A stretch of 53,267 nt of DNA, the filler included, from Dirinaria sp. TL-2023a (taxonomy: Eukaryota), in the NCBI GenBank assembly GCA_051941275.1. It is 3 parts of 3 records of this genome, joined end to end, with 100 filler letters (N's around TTAATTAATTAA, not from the genome) between each part and the next. Parts side by side here need not be neighbours in the genome. Positions count along the whole stretch, not along the records: positions 1 to 17,708 come from JAVEBF010000414.1; 2 more parts are not named here. One strand, 5' to 3'. Positions 11,201 to 35,595 of this stretch are shown here, in pieces (positions within the stretch are counted from its first letter, which is position 1; every line of letters starts with the position of its first letter). Below the pieces are notes generated by a model. The model saw only the letters and a list, made by a program, of their open reading frames with translations, was not told the origin of the DNA and did not search any database. The position numbers were made by a program, and so were the translations under genes.

Positions 11201-12764
11201 GTATTGGGGAGTTCTCGCTTAACAGCCCAAAATTGGCCTAGCGTTGGAAGGCTACTGATAAGCGAGAATTGTGTCACGTTACCATCCTCCCAACGCGCCT
11301 TTCTCCCAAATACCTAGTTCCACACGATTGTTCAGTCTGTTTCCAATCGTTCCTATCCATGCCTATCTATCATTGCATGCGCAATGGTAGTGCATTGCTG
11401 ATAATTCCTATCTTCCATTCTTAATATCATGTAATTCGCGGGTTTGCAATAGATCATGAGCCAGAATTCTCACTGTGCGTACGATGATACTTTCTCGTGT
11501 ACGGCGTAAGATTTGACATGTTGCAGATGAAAAACCTGTTCTCTTTATCGAGCAAGCAGGGTCGACGGATTTGCGCAAGTCATTGCATCGGCCGTTCCCG
11601 GTTCGACATTTCAGAATGATCCAATGATGGAGGACGCTCGAATGACGCTTCGATTCAAATGGATCTAATCTTTGAGGTACACTCGTCACCTGAACACTGT
11701 TTTGAAATATGTACATCGAGCTAACTGATGTCCAGACACATATCCAAGCCAAGCCTAAACAAAAAGTGATAATTACGAACTTCCCCAGAAAGTTCTGCAA
11801 TGTCAACTTTCTCAAGTACATCTCAATTCCCTCACATCAGCGTCATATATCGCACAAAATCAGAAGATGCTTTGCACAAGATACAGCACGTCTACACAGT
11901 CTGGAGAACAACTACATTGGTCTCACTAAGCAGTCAGAGCTGGCACCAAGTTCGAGCGGAGCATGGAGTTGAGAATGGCGAGACAATTCTCTCAGCACAC
12001 ATGCAGGCGCGCGTCGCAGATTCAGGATGCTTCTCATCAGCCTTCCACGCCTCCTCATTGCATTCAGTGTTGGCAGTCCGGAAAATCTCGAAAACCACTG
12101 GTTCTGTTGGACTTCTGTGCGCTTCAGCCATCTTCCCTAGTAAACTCAACGTTTTTTCAACATGTTCATCCACCCGTCTACCTCCAGTTATCGACCGGTG
12201 AGGGAGAGAAGAGTTCTGGCGTTAGAAGTAGCCTGCTGAGCAAGGTTGGTGTGGGTGTTCAAGTCATGAGAGGGATTGATGAGCATATTTCACTGTGTAA
12301 GGCCATATTCGTTATTTTCATAGTTGAACTTTGGAAGGGAAAGAGACTGGGTTGGCCCCCAAGCCCCAGAACCCGACCTACCTAGCTAGCTAATTCTTAG
12401 AATATCTCACTCAACGCAATCAAGATACCATGTGCCTCTTTTTCCACTACATGGAAGAGATAAAAAATAATTCAGTGCTCAGTCTATCTTGGAGCAATAC
12501 CAACTCCACCTCCTCAATTCCCAAAAGCAGGCGCGCTCGGCGCGTGACGGGCCAAGAGCGGCCTCGTATTGGGGAGCTCTCGCTTAACAACCCAAAATTG
12601 GCCTAGCGTTAGAAGGCTACTGATATCTTAAGCGAGAAATTTTCGGAATTTGGTAACTCAGTCACGTTACCATCCTCCAACGCGCCTTTTCCCCAAATAG
12701 TTCCACACGATTGTTCAGTCTATTTCCAATCATTCCTATCCATGCCTATCTATCATTGCATGCG
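11201..12764 (+). repeat. Near-identical ~180-200 bp direct repeats (11201-11381 and 12566-12764), each containing a 10-bp inverted repeat
   Basis: Both run gtattggggag.tctcgcttaaca.cccaaaattggcctagcgtt.gaaggctactgat...aagcgagaa...gtcacgttaccatcctcc...catgcctatctatcattgcatgcg, with few substitutions and short indels. Confidence 0.9.
12321..12392 (+). other. Conserved structured junction element, copy 1
   Basis: TAGTT..TGGAAGGGAAAGAGACTG-ggttggcccccaagccc-CAGAACCCGACCT-ac-CTAGCTAGCTA. Confidence 0.85.
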
Positions 12765-13804
12765 TGTCTGCAGTGGCTTTGATAAATTCCAAGAATGCTT
12801 GGAGCGATGTCTCCTTTAAGTGTCATCCATTTCGCCGGCTTACAACAAGTCATGAGTCCCGGATTCGCGCTGTAAGTAAGCATGCACGAACTTTGGATAG
12901 CGAGAGGCTGATCCGTTAAAGCTGAGAAGATCTTCACCGGTCGCAAAAGAAGCCTTGCAGCGGGCAAAGCCCATTCCACGAGAAAGAGAATTAGATATGT
13001 GTGCCCAGACGACACGTGCTTCGAGTAGCAGGATGGCGCCTTGAGTCCAAGTGAATCTGTCTACTTGAACATCTTACGAAGACTCTACATCTCGCACCCT
13101 TATTCCTCAACTTCCGCGATCCCCAGATCCAAATCCCAGGACACTGTCAAACTCGAGTTACAACAACCGTACTCGAAAACTCCTGTGTCGCTGAAGCAAA
13201 ATTCAACGTTCCGCAAGTAATCTTCCTGATTCCAGTACCTAGCTTGACCAGAGGTAAGCATTTCGAAGTAGCTTGTGCGTATCCGTACTGACCCTTGAGG
13301 TAGATATACCCTCTATTCTTCCTCGGCTCGCACCATAGAGATAACCCTGCAGTACCGAAATTCCACCTGTCTGCATTCTCCAGACCTTATCATTGCTTTC
13401 AACATTCCAACTCGGAAGCAATTTTGGGTTCGATCCGATCTTCTATCTGGCAATATCTGACTCTCTATTTGTTACTGAGTTTGGCACCTTAATTGACACC
13501 TCGCCGTCGTCGCACTTGAAATCGACGTGCCTGCGCAGCATTTCTTCAGTGAAGCTGGGAAAATTATTTGACGACCACCACAACAGACTCACATGTTCAC
13601 CTATCCATTTATTTCTAGCTATCGGCCGCTAAGGTAGAAGGACTGGTGGTGCTGGAGGGTAGTCTACAGAGCGAGTTTTGGGGCGCGTGTGTGTGTGCAG
13701 TATATTTTGATGTTTTTTCACACTGCAAAGGAAAGGACAACTCTACAGCAGAGGTTTCAATAACTCAAAAACGAGTCCTATGTTTTATACATCATTCCAG
13801 TCCA

Positions 13805-13875
13805 TAGTTGCCATGGAAGGGAAAGAGACTGGGGTGGTATCCAAGCCCCCAGAACCCGACCTCTCTAGCTAGCTA
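13805..13875 (+). other. Conserved structured junction element, copy 2
   Basis: TAGTT..TGGAAGGGAAAGAGACTG-gggtggtatccaagcccc-CAGAACCCGACCT-ct-CTAGCTAGCTA. Confidence 0.85.
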
Positions 13876-13886
13876 CTTGATGCATA

Positions 13887-13919
13887 GAAGAAGAAGAAGA
13901 AGAAGAAGAAGAAGAAGAA
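13887..13919 (+). repeat. (GAA)11 microsatellite
   Basis: Direct reading; lies just beyond junction copy 2. Confidence 0.95.
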
Positions 13920-14157
13920 AAAAAGGAAGCGTGTTCCCTGCTCGTACATTTAAATTCGTGGCCTCACTTTTCGTCCTTCTTGATTCCGGACCCCATCGTC
14001 GAAAATTTAAGCCTCCTTTCTGAATCAACATCCAATTTCACGTCATCGTTTTCAAAAGCGTAAGTGCGCGAGATGCGAGTCAAATCGTTTCACCAAATTG
14101 AGCCAGTGTTGAAAGTTCTCGCTTAAGGTAATATCAACCTACAGATACCTAAGGTAG

Positions 14158-14260
14158 CACAGCGGGTGGAACGCGCCCGCCGTACGCAAGGATACAAGGG
14201 TGTTTTTGCGGTAGACTCGGCGACTAAATCACGCTACGCGGGCGCGTTCCACCCGCTGTG
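14158..14260. mobile_element. Putative MITE / foldback element, 103 bp with 23-bp perfect terminal inverted repeats
   Basis: cacagcgggtggaacgcgcccgc (14158-14180) and its exact reverse complement (14238-14260). It is absent from the equivalent position of the other array units. Confidence 0.65.
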
Positions 14261-15410
14261 TAACTACTGTAGAGCCAAATCTAGCCTAACCTGAAGCGCG
14301 TCCTTCTCAGGATCCTTCAATACATGTATCCAACACTTCCCCTCAATAACTCCACATCCATACCATCCACCAATGGCTGCTTCGTTCTCAAACCCTTCCT
14401 CCTCAACTCACCTACCACTGCATGTTTGTTCCCAGTGTATTCAGAAGACGTCAAGATGTCTTCCAAGTCATCAAATCAGTCCGGCTTTCAAGGCATTATG
14501 AGCCCTGGATCAGCGCTGTAAGTAACCACGCCGGAATGATGGATAGTGAAAAGTCTGATATATTCTAGACTAGAGCCCCACACGATCCCAAAATTTGATA
14601 ATCTTTCGAAAACCCTCTGTCGAGCAAGTCCTCCACCACACGACGGAATCGGAAAGTAGAATTCGAGGACATCCATATTTATAACACCCACAAGTCCACG
14701 GGAACTCCAATGCAGCAGCCGAGCGCCCTAAGCCGCTAGAAATGACGCAGAGCGGACCAACTACAACTGACCTCTCAACAAACGTTCCTGCAGCTCCACA
14801 AAATCGAGAAAACGTCCTCAATTTCCAAAGCATCGATTGACCTCCTCCATTGTCCCACGGCGGATGAGCTCAAGCACCCCACAGCCTACAAGGGCCCCAA
14901 TTCTCGAGCAGTGCTTCGTGGATTAGCGGGGCTGACCAGCGACGAGTCCGATTTACGCTTAGCTTCCTCCTTATCCGCATACCTGTTGAGCGATCTATTG
15001 AGTATGACCCCAGGCCAACAAAAGTATGCCCTCACTGACCTGGGACTCAATTCCTAGTTGATCGGCTAAAATGGGTAGAGACTTCTTATCGCCTGGCAAG
15101 CCTCCCGATCACCTCGGACACCTCCTCATTTACATCCAACTCGAAAGTGGCGTTTACGCAAACATCCACTACCAGATGCCAGTCGTTCGAGTAGGGGGGA
15201 ATACTTAAGCTAGAAACAGCTTTTTGAGCGAGATCTATGTGGATATTGCAGCGTGGGTAATGCTCTGATATTATTTTCATCGGCCACTATCATGTCTATT
15301 TGGTCACTTGAATCCTTCCTGACACCAAATCTGCCCAGAGCTTAACCTCGAGGCCAAAACCTGTTTTTACTTCAAAAGCGGATCTCATGGACCATACCTC
15401 ACAACTAGGA

Positions 15411-15477
15411 TAGTTGCTCCTGGAAGGGAAAGAGACTGAAGGTTTCCACCTCAGAACCCGACCTCTCTAGCTAGCTA
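15411..15477 (+). other. Conserved structured junction element, copy 3
   Basis: TAGTT..TGGAAGGGAAAGAGACTG-aaggtttccacct-CAGAACCCGACCT-ct-CTAGCTAGCTA. Confidence 0.85.
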
Positions 15478-16798
15478 CACCGTCGAACCAAATCTTTGCC
15501 GCTCAGGCCTTATGCCTTGGTTTCCTCTCTCCATAACTAGAATCACGATCAAAGTTCCTCTTGCCTCTTTTCCTACCCCATGCTCCAGAATATCATCTAG
15601 AGCCCCACTGGTCTCCGAACCCAATGTCGGCTCACCCTCAACATTCCCAAGGGCTCACATGACCCAAGTGTTGAAAATCTCGCTTAATCCTAGCGTCTCG
15701 ACTTAGCGTGAAATCTCTTCTGATAAGCGCGTTCGAGGTTCAACCCCAAATAATCCCACATACGCTGCTTGGTTTGCACCTTCCATTTTTCTCCTCGCTC
15801 TGCCTACCTCTCAAATGGGTCCAATGTTGCGCGAAAAAATCCTCCTGGTAACTTACCATCAGATCGGGCGAGTTGCAATATCACAGGTTTGTGAGCTTAG
15901 GTAGGTTAAACGCGAACAATCAGACAGCGAAGGATTGACCTGTTCTCGAAGAAAAACTTGCACCGGTCGCGACTTGCAACGCGCTCTACAAGGCTTTCCA
16001 TCGAGCGAGTTCATTCCACCAAAAACCTCCTCTTAAATCGAAGGATGCCACAATAACGCTCTATCTCTTTCGAGATGGAAACTCAAAAACTCCTCAAAAT
16101 CTCTCTATCAGGACCCCGTATCTGCGGTTAGATAGGCCCCCTACCTGTTTCAGGGGCCCCTGGCACTGGAATCAAAAGACTAATTAAACCAGGTTCCCGA
16201 CTTGGCGGTCTATTCTCCTACTTGTGTATGCTCATAGGACACTCTGTCTTTAGAGACAGAATCTAAGCTCGACAAAAGTAATACATCGCCAAGATACTCA
16301 AACTAGTCTACCTCGGTCAAAAAGTCTCAACGGTCTTCAGTATCTCTCTCTACATCAGCGCAGCTTAACACAGAATCCACCACGCACCAACTCTACATCG
16401 TCCAAAGAAAGTTTGAGACATGAATCCATCACGCAGTCAAAAAGCGCTGCTAAGGATCAAGCAAGCCACACCAACACCACGACAAGAAAGCGCTCAAAAA
16501 CGTTGTGTCGGAAAGTTTATGGAAGCGCGGTCTCGCACATCAGCTTTCAATGTTTCGTCATTCGTATCCGGCATTGACAGTTTCGAAAGTCTGGATGCCA
16601 GTCACTTGCAGGATATCAGTCGCGCTCAGAGAGATGGGAAAGTCGGCGCGTCTCTGGAGCGGAAGTTTCACTCGTAGGGATTGCACCCATCTCAGACCAC
16701 CATTCGGGTCATGTTCTGACATAACTCGCAGCAGAACTCGAACAGAATTTTTGGCAAGCTCATGCACGCTTCATGTATAGGAAATGGGTATTATTAGA

Positions 16799-16890
16799 TA
16801 GTTCACTCCTGGAAGGGAAAGAGACTGGGGCGCGGCCTATAAGCCCCAGAACCCGACCTTCTCGTGTCAAATCCATGTAGATAGTAGCTA
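16799..16890 (+). other. Conserved structured junction element, copy 4
   Basis: TAGTT..TGGAAGGGAAAGAGACTG-gggcgcggcctataagccc-CAGAACCCGACCT, then ~22 nt, then TAGTAGCTA. Confidence 0.8.
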
Positions 16891-17708
16891 ATTTCATAGA
16901 GATTACACACTTAATTTATCTCATGTCTTCTTGACGCTCTAACATGATCCATAATCATCCCGTCCATGACATATCTAGGGTTCGGATTGATGTTTCCCCA
17001 ATCTCGCTCATCATAATCGTGCTCTTAGATTCCTCGTTCATAGCCTTCTTTCCACACCAAGCCACGAGTTATTCAAGTGATAAGTCTCAATCCAATCCAT
17101 AGCTTAGATCTGCTCTGCACTACATACATACGAAACGTTGGCCAGCGGAAATATTACTACACTACGGCTTGAAACAAACACGATCGACAAATTTGTCAAG
17201 CAACTCTTTCTTTCCATCGAGTAAGTAAGTCATTTCACTGCTGAACTCGTCTCGACGATCAGAAGAATGGTTCTAATATTGAACTTATAAGACATATATA
17301 ATTCTCGCGTTGTTGCCAGGAAGAAAGATATACAAGCCATCTCAAAAGGCGCGCCAATACTAGGTAGAGGTTACCAGGAAACTCAAAACACGAATCCGCA
17401 ATCTCGAAACAAACAAGCGTCACTTAGATAAGCAAAATCTCTCTCTCTCGAAAAAGCTCTATACATACATCAACCCAGACTCAAACGTTCAAAAGATATA
17501 CATAACTTTAAAAAAACCTCGATAACAACAAATATTCGTTAAAAATCCGAAGAATATAGTTAAGAAGAAAGATCAAACATTTCTCAAAATTAACACTTCC
17601 TTCTCGACTTCTTGTTCACACAACGTCAGCGTACCGTACAGTATTTGCGCGATCTTGAGAGCAGCAGAAACAGAATAGTACACGATCCCCCCACCCCCCA
17701 AAAAAGGC

Positions 17709-17808
17709 NNNNNNNNNNNNNNNNNNNNNNNNNNNNNNNNNNNNNNNNNNNNTTAATTAATTAANNNNNNNNNNNNNNNNNNNNNNNNNNNNNNNNNNNN
17801 NNNNNNNN
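17709..17808. other. Artificial assembly gap/linker
   Basis: 100 nt of N with a central TTAATTAATTAA (stop codons in all six frames). Confidence 0.97.
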
Positions 17809-31726: not shown

Positions 31727-34333
31727 ATGGATCTCATTTCAGATGTCAGCTCAGCAGCAGAAAGCGACCAAACCACGCCTCTCTACCAGTGCTCGTCTCC
31801 TGCCAGCTCTCACGAAGCATCTCCCTTATCCTCTATCTTCTCTTGTGACACCGCTTCAAGTCAGCATACCAGCACATCAGCATCCTCGAGCTCATCCGGA
31901 GAATGGGAAAATGCGAGAATCCTTTACTCCTTGAGCAATCCTCAGAACTCCGCCACACCTGATCATCGAGGACTAATCCATCCTAACGCCCCCGTACGCG
32001 TTGTCGCCAAAGGTTTCCAGGACTTTGGATCTGCTACATGGCGCGATGGTCCACCTTCCAGTCATCAAGTACAATCTCAGCAAGAGGTCCCCCTTAGCTC
32101 GCGACAAAATCCCCGTCGTTCCCGACCTCAGATTAGGGCTGACCCTAACGATGGAACTTCTGCCGTGCCACAGCCTCGGCCACCGCCTGCACTTGTTCGA
32201 CAAGAAGTCCGCAAAGACAGCTTTGTGGACAGCCTTGTTGGTGAGCTTATGTTCGTGGATGCTTGGTATCATTGCTAATGTTATCGGTCGGAAGACACGA
32301 CCACGCAGACGCTCGAGACGATTTGGCCGTTGACAAGATCATGTGGCAATCCCACTGACAAACAGAGGCTCATTGGCTTACGTACATTTGTACAGGAGGT
32401 GCTCAAGCGCTCGAAAACCAGCTATTCGACGCTTCTCGTCGCGTTGCATTACCTCATCGTCCTCATGCCTTGCGTACCTCGATACGGGAATTTCACAATG
32501 GAACAGATCGATGATTCGGAAGGATGCCGAGCGATGCAATGCGGCCGTCGAATGTTCTTGGCTGCGCTCATACTAGCTTCAAAGTACCTTCAGGATCGAA
32601 ACTACTCCACGCGAGCCTGGGGGAAGATATCGGGATTGAAGATCTGTGAGATCAATACCAACGAGAAAGTCTTCCTGGCCGCGATCAACTGGAGACTGCA
32701 TTTTCCCAGCTCGTTGTTTCAGCGCTGGGAGAATATTGTCTTGAAGTATTCGCCATCGGCGCAGCCAGCCACGACACCAAGGTCATGCCCGAATGCAAAC
32801 CGCACATGGCGGTCCATCATTCCACAGCTCAATGCGGAGCTCGATCAGTTCGACGATAAGGGCGATCTGTTGTCTGACAATGACTCTGGTTACTACTCTT
32901 CGAGCTCACGAGGAAGCTCGCGAGGGAGCTCGCCACATGCTCCACGGATCTCGGGCGAGCTCTTCACCCCAACCGCTCCATCGTCTTATGTCATACCCCG
33001 GGTTCTTGAACCGCAGCCTCGCGAAACGAAGTCGGAAAGCAAGATGCTGCCACCACTTCAGCCTCGCGAAGGTCCACTTCCCACCCCGAACTTCACTCCT
33101 CGCAACCCGGCTCTTTGCACTCCTGCAGTGAGTGCTTCAGGACTGCTGCCTCGCAAGTCGTCAATGGCGATGGCGATGGCGCAGAATAGGAAGACATGGG
33201 AAGACTCGCTACTGGACAGAGTAGACACGTTCAGCCCCAATTCGGCTGGCTGTGATCTTCGGCGCTTTTCGCGCACATCCTCAGACCTGTCAAAGGGTTC
33301 TTCCTCACCAGACTCAACCTACGGAAGTCAGTCCTCATACCCTTCTCGAACGTCGTCGATCTCTTCAGTCGCTTCATCGACCTGCGCGCTTCCTAGACCT
33401 GAGTGGACTTGGCAAGCGACACGTCGTTGTGCGAACTCACAGTCATCGAACTTGAGAGAATTTCAGCTACCGGGTCAGAACCAGACTTCGGAGAAAGTCA
33501 TGGCCTGGAACGACCCTTTTAGCTCCGTCAGGACCAACGACTCGTCGCCGGCTTCGTCCACCGTTTCGGATGAAGTCACACCCCGAGCAACGTTGCCTCA
33601 CACTCCAACTGCTGCGGCGTCATGCCGGACAACATACGATGCAGCTTCTGCGCTCTGCGAACTTAACCTCGAGCGGAATCTGCCGAGCCTTGGGTCTTCG
33701 CAGCCTGTCTCGTATCTGAGGTCACGCAAGCGGGAGCGACCTCGCTCTATCGATCATGCTCTTCAATCTTCCGTCCGGGAGTTGATCACACACGGCAACT
33801 TTAGAGATCTTGCGGACGTTGACCGAGAGCCTGAAAGGGTCCTGCCGGACAAGAAGGCAGCCAACACATGGCTATTGCAACGTGGAGCGGAGCCCCAAGA
33901 TGACTTCAAGGTTCTGGCTGCCGAGGAATTTCGGAATAAGTGCACGACTGCTCACCCTGCCATTGATCGCCAACGATTGTCAGATAACGAATCAGATTCT
34001 AGCTTCCTCCCTCGCAAGAAAGCTTGCATATCGCCTCCCAGCTTCGATCGCATTTGGGGAAGTATTGGTAACATCCCAACAAATTTCGGTCGGAGTAACA
34101 AGTCGTCGGTGAAGGTTGCTGCGCAAGGAGCTGACTCAAACCCAGCGTCACAAGATGACGCGAAGATGAGTTCGGCGCCGCGATCTCGGCTCGCACTCCT
34201 CCCGCACTCCAGGTCCATGTCCTATCCCAGCCAGCAACTACATCATGCGACAACGTTGCGCGCTGCCATTGATCATAATGATCGTGCAGCTCTTCGCAAC
34301 GGAAGATTGTGGGGCGAGATCTCACATAGTTAG
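31727..34333 (+). CDS. Pho85-type (Pcl/Pho80 family) cyclin, Pcl5-like
   Basis: Cyclin box LRTFVQEVLKRSKTSYSTLLVALHYL and CGRRMFLAALILASKYLQDRNYSTRAWGKISGL...EKVFLAAINWRL. RKDSFVDSLV is followed by an intron at ~32241-32295. Long Ser-rich tail. Confidence 0.85.
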
Positions 34334-35495: not shown

Positions 35496-35595
35496 NNNNN
35501 NNNNNNNNNNNNNNNNNNNNNNNNNNNNNNNNNNNNNNNTTAATTAATTAANNNNNNNNNNNNNNNNNNNNNNNNNNNNNNNNNNNNNNNNNNNN
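35496..35595. other. Artificial assembly gap/linker
   Basis: 100 nt of N with a central TTAATTAATTAA. Confidence 0.97.

Follow-up and report, generated by a model that had tools for sequence, protein, structure and literature searches.

What has kept one short sequence almost unchanged, once per unit, in a tandem array whose units have otherwise decayed? The question is raised by a locus of Dirinaria sp. TL-2023a (NCBI GenBank assembly GCA_051941275.1), which was analysed within a window, meaning the whole stretch of DNA studied, of 53 kb (53,267 nucleotides with filler). The window consists of three contigs joined end to end, and the sequences flanking a joint are not necessarily neighbours in the genome. 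At the end of the first contig lies an old tandem array of five units (11201..17708, + strand), recognised by collinear shared blocks, and each of the four complete units is closed by a copy of a 70-90 base element, here called element A. This element is real and non-random. It is unclassified, and it is probably functional. The explanation that we favour, at a probability of roughly 0.4, is that element A may be a cis-acting structured RNA module located near the 3' end of the + strand transcript of each unit.

Element A is built from two invariant blocks on either side of a variable insert. The 5' block, the 18-mer TGGAAGGGAAAGAGACTG, has exactly four exact matches in the window, all on the + strand (at 12332, 13814, 15421 and 16810); with up to 3 mismatches allowed there was no fifth match in the 53 kb (0.04 expected by chance), and none of 100 shuffles reached four matches. 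The 3' block, the 13-mer CAGAACCCGACCT, likewise has exactly four exact matches, all + (at 12367, 13850, 15452 and 16847), and the sole additional match, with 2 mismatches at 33476, is unrelated. The insert between them measures 17, 18, 13 and 19 nucleotides (nt) in copies c1, c2, c3 and c4, respectively. On the outside, TAGTTG is found 3-5 nt 5' of the 18-mer in c1-c3 (TAGTTC in c4), and TAGCTA is found 3' of the 13-mer in all four copies, in c4 only after an extra 18-20 nt. In c1-c3 the perfect DNA palindrome CTAGCTAGCTA starts two bases past the 13-mer, and in c4 the extra bases are followed by TAGCTAATT, which is common to c4 and c1. The four copies are as follows.

12321..12392, + strand: element A copy c1, 100.6 bits with the covariance model (TAGTTG 12321-12326; 18-mer 12332-12349; 17-nt insert 12350-12366; 13-mer 12367-12379; CTAGCTAGCTA 12382-12392)
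13805..13875, + strand: element A copy c2, 89.5 bits (TAGTTG 13805-13810; 18-mer 13814-13831; 18-nt insert 13832-13849; 13-mer 13850-13862; CTAGCTAGCTA 13865-13875)
15411..15477, + strand: element A copy c3, 78.3 bits (TAGTTG 15411-15416; 18-mer 15421-15438; 13-nt insert 15439-15451; 13-mer 15452-15464; CTAGCTAGCTA 15467-15477)
16799..16890, + strand: element A copy c4, 79.4 bits (TAGTTC 16799-16804; 18-mer 16810-16827; 19-nt insert 16828-16846; 13-mer 16847-16859; TAGCTA 16885-16890)

A covariance model made from the four copies and run over the whole window with filters off recovered only c1-c4 (78-101 bits), the next-best match scoring 12 bits with an expectation value (E) of 0.9. The four copies, the 18/18 and 13/13 identity and the 13-19 nt insert had all been reported in the first-pass annotation of this DNA, and they were confirmed, coordinates included. 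A pure (AGA)11 microsatellite is located at 13886-13919, after copy c2.

The invariance of these blocks has to be seen against the state of the array. The units are approximately 1.2-1.3 kb each, plus spacers of approximately 100-240 nt, and the distances from one A to the next are 1482, 1607 and 1389 nt. Four units are complete, and the fifth (from ~17000) is cut by the contig end; since the array reaches the end of the first contig (17708), it may be longer in the real genome. K-mer sharing and E-INS-i alignment showed collinear short blocks in all units. Outside A, the aligned identity between units was 0.39-0.56 in forced pairwise alignments, and BLASTN with 7-nt words found almost nothing between units but A and three further blocks: one of 200 bp in the first two units (11201-11381 vs 12566-12764, 83% gapped identity, with 95% of aligned bases matching and up to 97% in sub-blocks), one of 48 nt (12160-12207 vs 13591-13638) and one of 79 nt (12835-12912 vs 14481-14559). 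The first and second units differ by 18 transitions and 4 transversions, with many C-to-T changes in C-rich runs, and the second and third by 10 transitions and 10 transversions. Decay of the type caused by repeat-induced point mutation was considered as the cause of the divergence and rejected, the observed/expected ratio of CC+GG being normal across the array (0.80-1.05). With 31 positions (18+13) invariant in four of four copies while the units are otherwise 39-56% identical, only selection explains the conservation of A.

The insert, by contrast with its flanks, changes sequence while continuing to form a hairpin. In every copy CTG/CAG is extended into an apical stem of 7-9 bp, and the solutions differ. 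The extensions described in the first-pass annotation (CTGGG/CCCAG, CTGGGG/CCCCAG, CTG-a-AGGT/ACCT-CAG and CTGGGGC/GCCCCAG) all read exactly so. In c1 the stem is CUGGG-UUGG paired with CCAA-(GC)-CCCAG; in c2 a U-to-G change is met by an extra C, with which the extra G pairs; and in c4 a new C is paired with the G that bulges in c1 and c2. The hairpin of c3 (CUG-a-AGGU/ACCU-CAG) is different, as the GGGG arm has been lost (now AA) and the inner GG(U) pairs with the former outer (A)CC. When random inserts matched to the local composition were used for comparison, the number of stem-extending pairs in c1 to c4, respectively, gave P = 0.004, 0.005, 0.044 and 0.064. For the minimum free energy of the hairpin, comparison with real inserts sampled from the array gave P = 0.0155, 0.006, 0.061 and 0.0015, and comparison with shuffled versions of the copy's own GC-rich insert gave P = 0.12, 0.037, 0.043 and 0.021. 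These values suggest that pairing within the insert is above chance, not overwhelmingly so. The 6-bp outer stem UAGUUG/UAGCUA is kept in all four copies, in c4 across the 18-nt insertion, although there the last pair is broken. The stem includes two G-U pairs; on the - strand these would be C-A mismatches, so that a + strand RNA is weakly favoured. A further hairpin that had been proposed for c3 and c4, UCCU-GGAA-GGGA, is present in those two copies only; as a common fold this GGAA-tetraloop alternative finds no support in the linkers of c1 and c2. Long-range pairing of the 18-mer with the unit bodies was no better than that of shuffled 18-mers (sum P = 0.53).

Since the hairpin is kept by different sequences and in different registers, while the spacer varies by 6 nt, a folded single strand fits these data better than a pair of double-stranded protein sites. 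The combination of 31 fixed bases with a drifting hairpin argues for a helix that serves as a scaffold, the signal to be read lying in the invariant purine-rich strands, which would be largely unpaired. Four features favour a cis-acting RNA module in particular: the splice signals on the + strand of the units (described below), the base composition of that strand, the G-U pairs of the outer stem, and the location of A after each unit. In such a scheme the units would be a lineage-specific tandem family of short, intron-bearing, apparently non-coding (or micro-ORF; ORF, open reading frame) transcription units, and A would lie in the 3' untranslated part, in the last intron or just past the poly(A) site. 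The apical hairpin (7-9 bp, free to change in sequence) and the 6-bp outer stem UAGUUG/UAGCUA would act together as a clamp, fixing the geometry of two invariant strands, UGGAAGGGAAAGAGA on the 5' side and AACCCGACCU on the 3' side, so as to present purine-rich internal loops (AAAGAGA opposite AA, and AA opposite GA). A sequence-specific RNA-binding factor might then read these loops. With one module per unit, the transcripts could share a common post-transcriptional control, be it 3'-end formation, stability or localisation; alternatively, if the array were read as one long RNA, the modules could form a multivalent binding platform.

Several observations weigh against this proposal. Against shuffles of its own insert the hairpin of c1 reaches only P = 0.12, and as c1, c2 and c4 can be aligned with one another there are only about two independent hairpin sequences. 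In stability the full element of 72-78 nt does not stand out from its shuffles (+ strand, z = -0.2 to -0.4; - strand, z = 0 to +0.7). Among 18 consensus pairs RNAalifold found a double change in one, a compensatory change from G-C to A-U, in a set made up of four related sequences, paralogues from one locus and with no homologue from another fungus; with covariation amounting to one formal pair, structure is suggested, not proven. The earlier claim that the element keeps its pairing while its sequence changes thus holds for the hairpin, which is retained in different registers, and reaches only this one pair in formal covariation. Pairs between invariant bases carry no covariation signal, because those bases never vary, and two registers, GGG:CCC or GGG:CCU, fold about equally well. 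Being 65-170 nt upstream of the A/T-rich box in the following unit, A also occupies a position that is normal for a DNA control site, and CTAGCTAG is a DNA palindrome. Finally, both + strand transcription and the transcript ends are things that we infer.

The units themselves were examined for landmarks. A first block, B, contains TCTCGCTTAA, which in the first two units can form a second hairpin by pairing with TTAAGCGAGA 29-40 nt away; all exact matches of block B in the window are within the array. Another, block E, resembles an exon followed by an intron, and its splice signals, read directly from the sequence, are those of an intron on the + strand. Further blocks collinear across units are CCCCAAATAGTTCCACA and ATCGAGCAAG.

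11213..11267, + strand: block B (TCTCGCTTAA) of the first unit, with its inverted partner, a small hairpin
12578-12637, + strand: block B of the second unit, a 10/10 bp stem with 40 nt between the arms
14117-14126, + strand: block B of the third unit, 5' arm only
from 15678, + strand: block B of the fourth unit (15678-15687; hairpin region to 15731)
near 17002: degenerate form of block B
12835..12912, + strand: block E of the second unit, exon-like ..ATGAGYCC.GGAT..GCGCT and then an intron-like stretch of ~50 nt, GTAAGT..CTGAT..AG
~11440-11527, + strand: block E homologue of the first unit
14481-14559, + strand: block E homologue of the third unit
~15857-15950, + strand: block E homologue of the fourth unit, degenerate

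In the third unit a perfect 23-bp inverted repeat (14158-14260, 57 nt between the arms) occupies the spot where other units have the 3' arm of block B. A/T-rich, TATA-like boxes are found on the + strand at ~12458, ~13948 and ~16913 and are promoter-like; block B of the next unit is found 170-300 nt after A, or approximately 250-300 nt after A by the position of its hairpin. The first unit has all the blocks as well as an A/T-rich box (~11105), yet no A upstream, and the neatest register is therefore B...E...A, in which A closes the units. The + strand of the array is C/A-rich, with a GC skew down to -0.19, so that the purine-rich blocks of A stand out.

There was little sign that the units encode protein. 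Codon log-odds, trained on the clear genes of the window, were mostly below 5 across the array, compared with 8-20 in the Sel1 gene, and strongly negative on the - strand of the array. The stop-to-stop ORFs of the units had no significant similarity to each other, and a splice-aware ORF search across the units gave no shared model. Pfam found nothing in three unit ORFs, and the best-scoring ORF (103 aa, third unit) had no homologue in a collection of 5.8 billion proteins, within the length range searched. Two details hint at past or weak coding or bear on the position of A: between the second and third units the differences in block E are partly at synonymous third positions, and the longest + strand ORFs of the first two units end at the same aligned column (12199 TGA, 13630 TAA), 131 and 182 nt before A. 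From the sequence, the units would appear to be + strand transcription units of the RNA polymerase (Pol) II type that are non-coding, micro-ORF-bearing or decaying.

Searches for relatives placed element A in no known family. As the first-pass annotation had proposed, Rfam was scanned, and none of 4227 families matched at the gathering threshold anywhere in the window; when the limit was relaxed to E 10, stretches of 5.2 kb and 121 nt gave only unrelated weak matches (such as eiav_FSE, 16 bits against a threshold of 40, and SAM_alpha, 11 bits against 36). In a metagenome scan, the gapped two-block pattern was found at one locus, L001 (856-896, - strand), in GC-rich DNA of bacterial type and approximately 115 nt from the start of an ORF for an OmpA-like beta-barrel. 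It forms a perfect rod, GGTCGGG-AAAGAGA-CTGAG..CTCAG-AA-CCCGACC, with an AAAGAGA/AA loop as in element A, scores 26.9 bits with the element A covariance model and belongs to no Rfam family. The same pattern had no match in the genomes of 185,579 prokaryote species and none in viral contigs. A relaxed pattern had 102 matches in the prokaryote genomes, about the number expected by chance, with inserts that form stems no oftener than shuffles do. As these matches are at chance level and show no excess of hairpins, we take L001 as an isolated coincidence between two hairpins, and its likeness to element A is probably due to chance. A literature text search with an 11-nt motif core gave only unrelated primer sequences among the matches listed.

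A number of known motifs were also considered, by eye and against their consensus sequences, and were dropped. For a tRNA-complementary primer-binding site, the position equivalent to C61 is G; for a K-turn, the register fails past the first G-A pair; a polypurine tract followed by the start of a long terminal repeat, an 11-nt tetraloop receptor, C/D and H/ACA boxes, and a Smaug/Vts1 CNGG loop were discarded likewise. By eye, a two-tetrad G-quadruplex was rejected on c3, which has only three G runs. An introner-like element was rejected as well, its ends not being conserved and c3 having neither GT nor AG.

The main rival to the RNA module is a DNA-level promoter or insulator site, which we consider a distinct possibility, if an unlikely one. 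The 18-mer and the 13-mer would then be sites for one or two DNA-binding proteins between tandem units on the same strand, forming an upstream activating site, an insulator or a roadblock terminator for the promoter of the unit that follows, with a palindromic spacer that is either incidental or a cruciform. The distances from A to the TATA-like boxes and to the next block B agree with this, as do the perfect palindrome CTAGCTAGCTA and the lack of a stable overall fold, and in the first unit, the only one without an upstream A, a stop codon interrupts the exon-like block, so that this unit may be dead. That same unit, however, retains a promoter-like box and blocks B-E, with 83% gapped identity to the second unit, without any A; the 6-bp variation of the spacer, about half a helical turn, would upset two cooperating sites; and the spacer keeps pairing while its sequence changes, whereas a dimer site would keep its sequence. 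Rather unlikely, in our judgement, is that each unit releases element A as a stable small RNA of ~75-100 nt, which would then be the actual product, cut from a terminal intron or 3' end, with the decayed units as mere hosts, like intron-borne small nucleolar RNAs (snoRNAs) or small-RNA precursors. In snoRNA host genes the small RNA is the best-kept part and the host is without a conserved ORF, which is the situation seen here; a closing stem flanks the element in four of four copies, the 18-mer starts with U, and two copies can be read as introns of ~100-125 nt, c1 from GTAAGG at 12297 to GCTAATTCTTAG at 12398 and c4 from GTATAG at 16774 to GCTAATTTCATAG at 16897. In outline, both of these read GTAAGG or GTATAG ... 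GCTAAT ... TAG. As an intron, c2 is a weak case, with GTTTTA, and c3 does not qualify, since it lacks a GT and has no AG close by; a T-run for Pol III is absent, and neither C/D or H/ACA boxes (by eye) nor an Rfam match was found. Dicer substrate precursors have extended, largely paired arms, and a microRNA-like precursor was rejected, as the 3' block offers partners for just 8 of the 18 positions in the 5' block, which would make a poor Dicer substrate. Improbable, finally, is a processing signal that delimits the units: a self-cleaving ribozyme of a new kind, or a guide for a nuclease, by which read-through transcripts of the array would be cut into units, or, in a variant, a signal that ends transcription between closely spaced tandem units. 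The presence of one structured element per unit, at the unit boundary, is consistent with this, and so are the invariant nucleotides in predicted loops beside a variable apical helix, which recalls the peripheral helices of small ribozymes. None of the 4227 Rfam families, all self-cleaving classes included, matched even at E up to 10, no core of the hammerhead, hairpin or hepatitis delta virus type was seen by eye, the hairpin loops are not conserved, which leaves no loop pseudoknot, and the duplex is too short for RNase III.

Two classes of mobile DNA had been suggested as analogues of A in the first-pass annotation, and both were compared with it, the 22 ORFs of at least 150 aa in the window serving as the set screened for transposase and recombinase families. 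The canonical Helitron 3' end is described in PMC5148889 and PMC11417382 as a short hairpin 10-12 nt from an end that finishes CTRR, and on this model the array would be a tandem multimer of a rolling-circle transposon with A as its right terminal signal (hairpin, ~12 nt, CTAG). A hairpin is indeed followed by CTAG after 12 nt in c1-c3, c1 and c4 can be read as CTAA|T and then TC, the similarity of these two copies continues into TC(T/A)TAGA as it would at a 3'-5' junction, and the assembly is interrupted by the array, at the end of a contig. PMC5148889 describes tandem Helitron copies from a fungus, and in PMC13535494 Helitrons are reported to be enriched in lichenised fungi, for which reason we keep a small probability for this origin. 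The details do not agree with it. Copy c4 has no CTAG at the 12-nt distance, and as the run after CTAG continues as CTAGCTAGCTA the true position of a Helitron-type end is ambiguous; the base after both the first and the second CTAG is C rather than T in c1-c3, the last tetramer is CTAC in c2 and c3 (not CTRR) and CTAA for c1 and c4, and a T comes next only on the assumption that CTAA is the end, an assumption that holds for two of four copies (c1, c4). The expected loss of homology after CTAG at an A|T site was not found, and homology continues: the c1/c4 similarity runs ~19 nt past TAGCTA, and the units are collinearly homologous along their length. There is no shared TC-led left end after A in the four copies, no RepHel or other transposase in the ORFs screened, and no further copy in the 53 kb. 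According to PMC5148889, most Helitrons of Pezizomycotina are of the Helitron2 type, with other termini. In PMC11417382 and PMC5148889, Helitron2 (HLE2) is characterised by 12-16 nt terminal inverted repeats, by insertion at T-T and by a stem-loop located past the right repeat; in the array, no inverted repeat of 12-16 nt pairs the unit start with the region before the hairpin, and the sole terminal complementarity is the 6-bp TAGTTG/TAGCTA within element A. What decides the matter is that a dead multimer would decay evenly, while in this array it is the flanks that stay frozen and the hairpin, which a family would keep, that drifts. Weaker still is the idea of an integron-like cassette array in which A would be the recombination site, folded from single-strand DNA; we regard it as almost certainly wrong. 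Imperfect hairpins in the same orientation, ~1.4 kb apart, with unpaired features and a variable terminal structure, do resemble attC sites. The core of attC is given in PMC5027507 as R' 5'-RYYYAAC-3' paired with the inverse core 5'-GTTRRRY-3'; GTTRRRY occurs only in c1 (GTTGAAC; GTTGCCA in c2, GTTGCTC in c3 and GTTCACT in c4), RYYYAAC occurs on the other arm of no copy, and no tyrosine recombinase/integrase family was found among the window ORFs. Moreover, what would be the cassettes show homology to one another and are non-coding, and attC sites conserve structure, not 31 nt of sequence. Without the core, without an integrase in the window and with paralogous spacers, membership in the attC class fails. 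What stands of the original proposal of a functional single-stranded DNA or RNA structure is the constraint and the kept hairpin, and its attC, Helitron and ribozyme parts are not supported.

The setting of the array is fungal nuclear DNA, as indicated by the Pfam content of the window ORFs. Neighbouring ORFs belong to the families Dus, Sel1 repeats, 2EXR/DUF7730, fumarate-lyase, asparagine synthase, Pex19, eukaryotic porin, fungal rhodopsin and TRI12, and ARAGORN found no tRNA or tmRNA genes. The contigs of the window are separated by two artificial joints.

17709..17808, no strand: N44-TTAATTAATTAA-N44, directly 3' of the array
35496-35595, no strand: second joint, N44-TTAATTAATTAA-N44

If element A is indeed an RNA module, Lecanoromycetes, whose non-coding RNA biology is almost undescribed, would gain an unclassified structured element, which would also be a clean natural case of selection keeping a module of ~75 nt while the tandem units around it decayed. 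As a DNA site or a transposon relic it would be ordinary; so far the element is a well-defined candidate rather than a discovery, and its four copies supply a ready covariance model.

Among known systems, integron attC sites resemble A in forming an imperfect rod that has unpaired bases and a terminal structure that varies, in their common orientation along an array and in gene-sized spacing, but A lacks the AAC/GTT core and an integrase, is in eukaryotic nuclear DNA, and has 31 strictly conserved nt and paralogous non-coding spacers. The 3' end of canonical Helitrons (HLE1) is alike in its GC-rich hairpin, ~12 nt and CTAG (c1-c3), in copies of one orientation and in the contig end; A differs in its invariant flanks and variable hairpin, in homologous units that decayed in place between copies, and in having no A|T junction, no conserved TC left end, no CTAG in c4 and no RepHel seen in the window. 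Hammerhead-bearing satellites and retrozymes carry a self-cleaving ribozyme once per tandem unit, and like them A is one conserved structured element per unit, at the boundary; it has neither a catalytic core nor a covariance-model match, and its units are 1.4-1.6 kb and strongly diverged. The RNA module that we favour has its closest parallels in the protein-binding stem-loops that are repeated in long RNAs or untranslated regions (UTRs), such as the NORAD units, the roX-box, the Xist A-repeat and the five iron-responsive elements of the transferrin-receptor 3' UTR. To these A has no sequence or Rfam similarity, its host is a lichen-type ascomycete, and it is known from four paralogues at one locus and from sequence alone. 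What it has in common with them is the design: invariant single-stranded nucleotides carried on a small helix that is free to drift, placed once in each unit of an old, decayed tandem duplication with no visible coding constraint.

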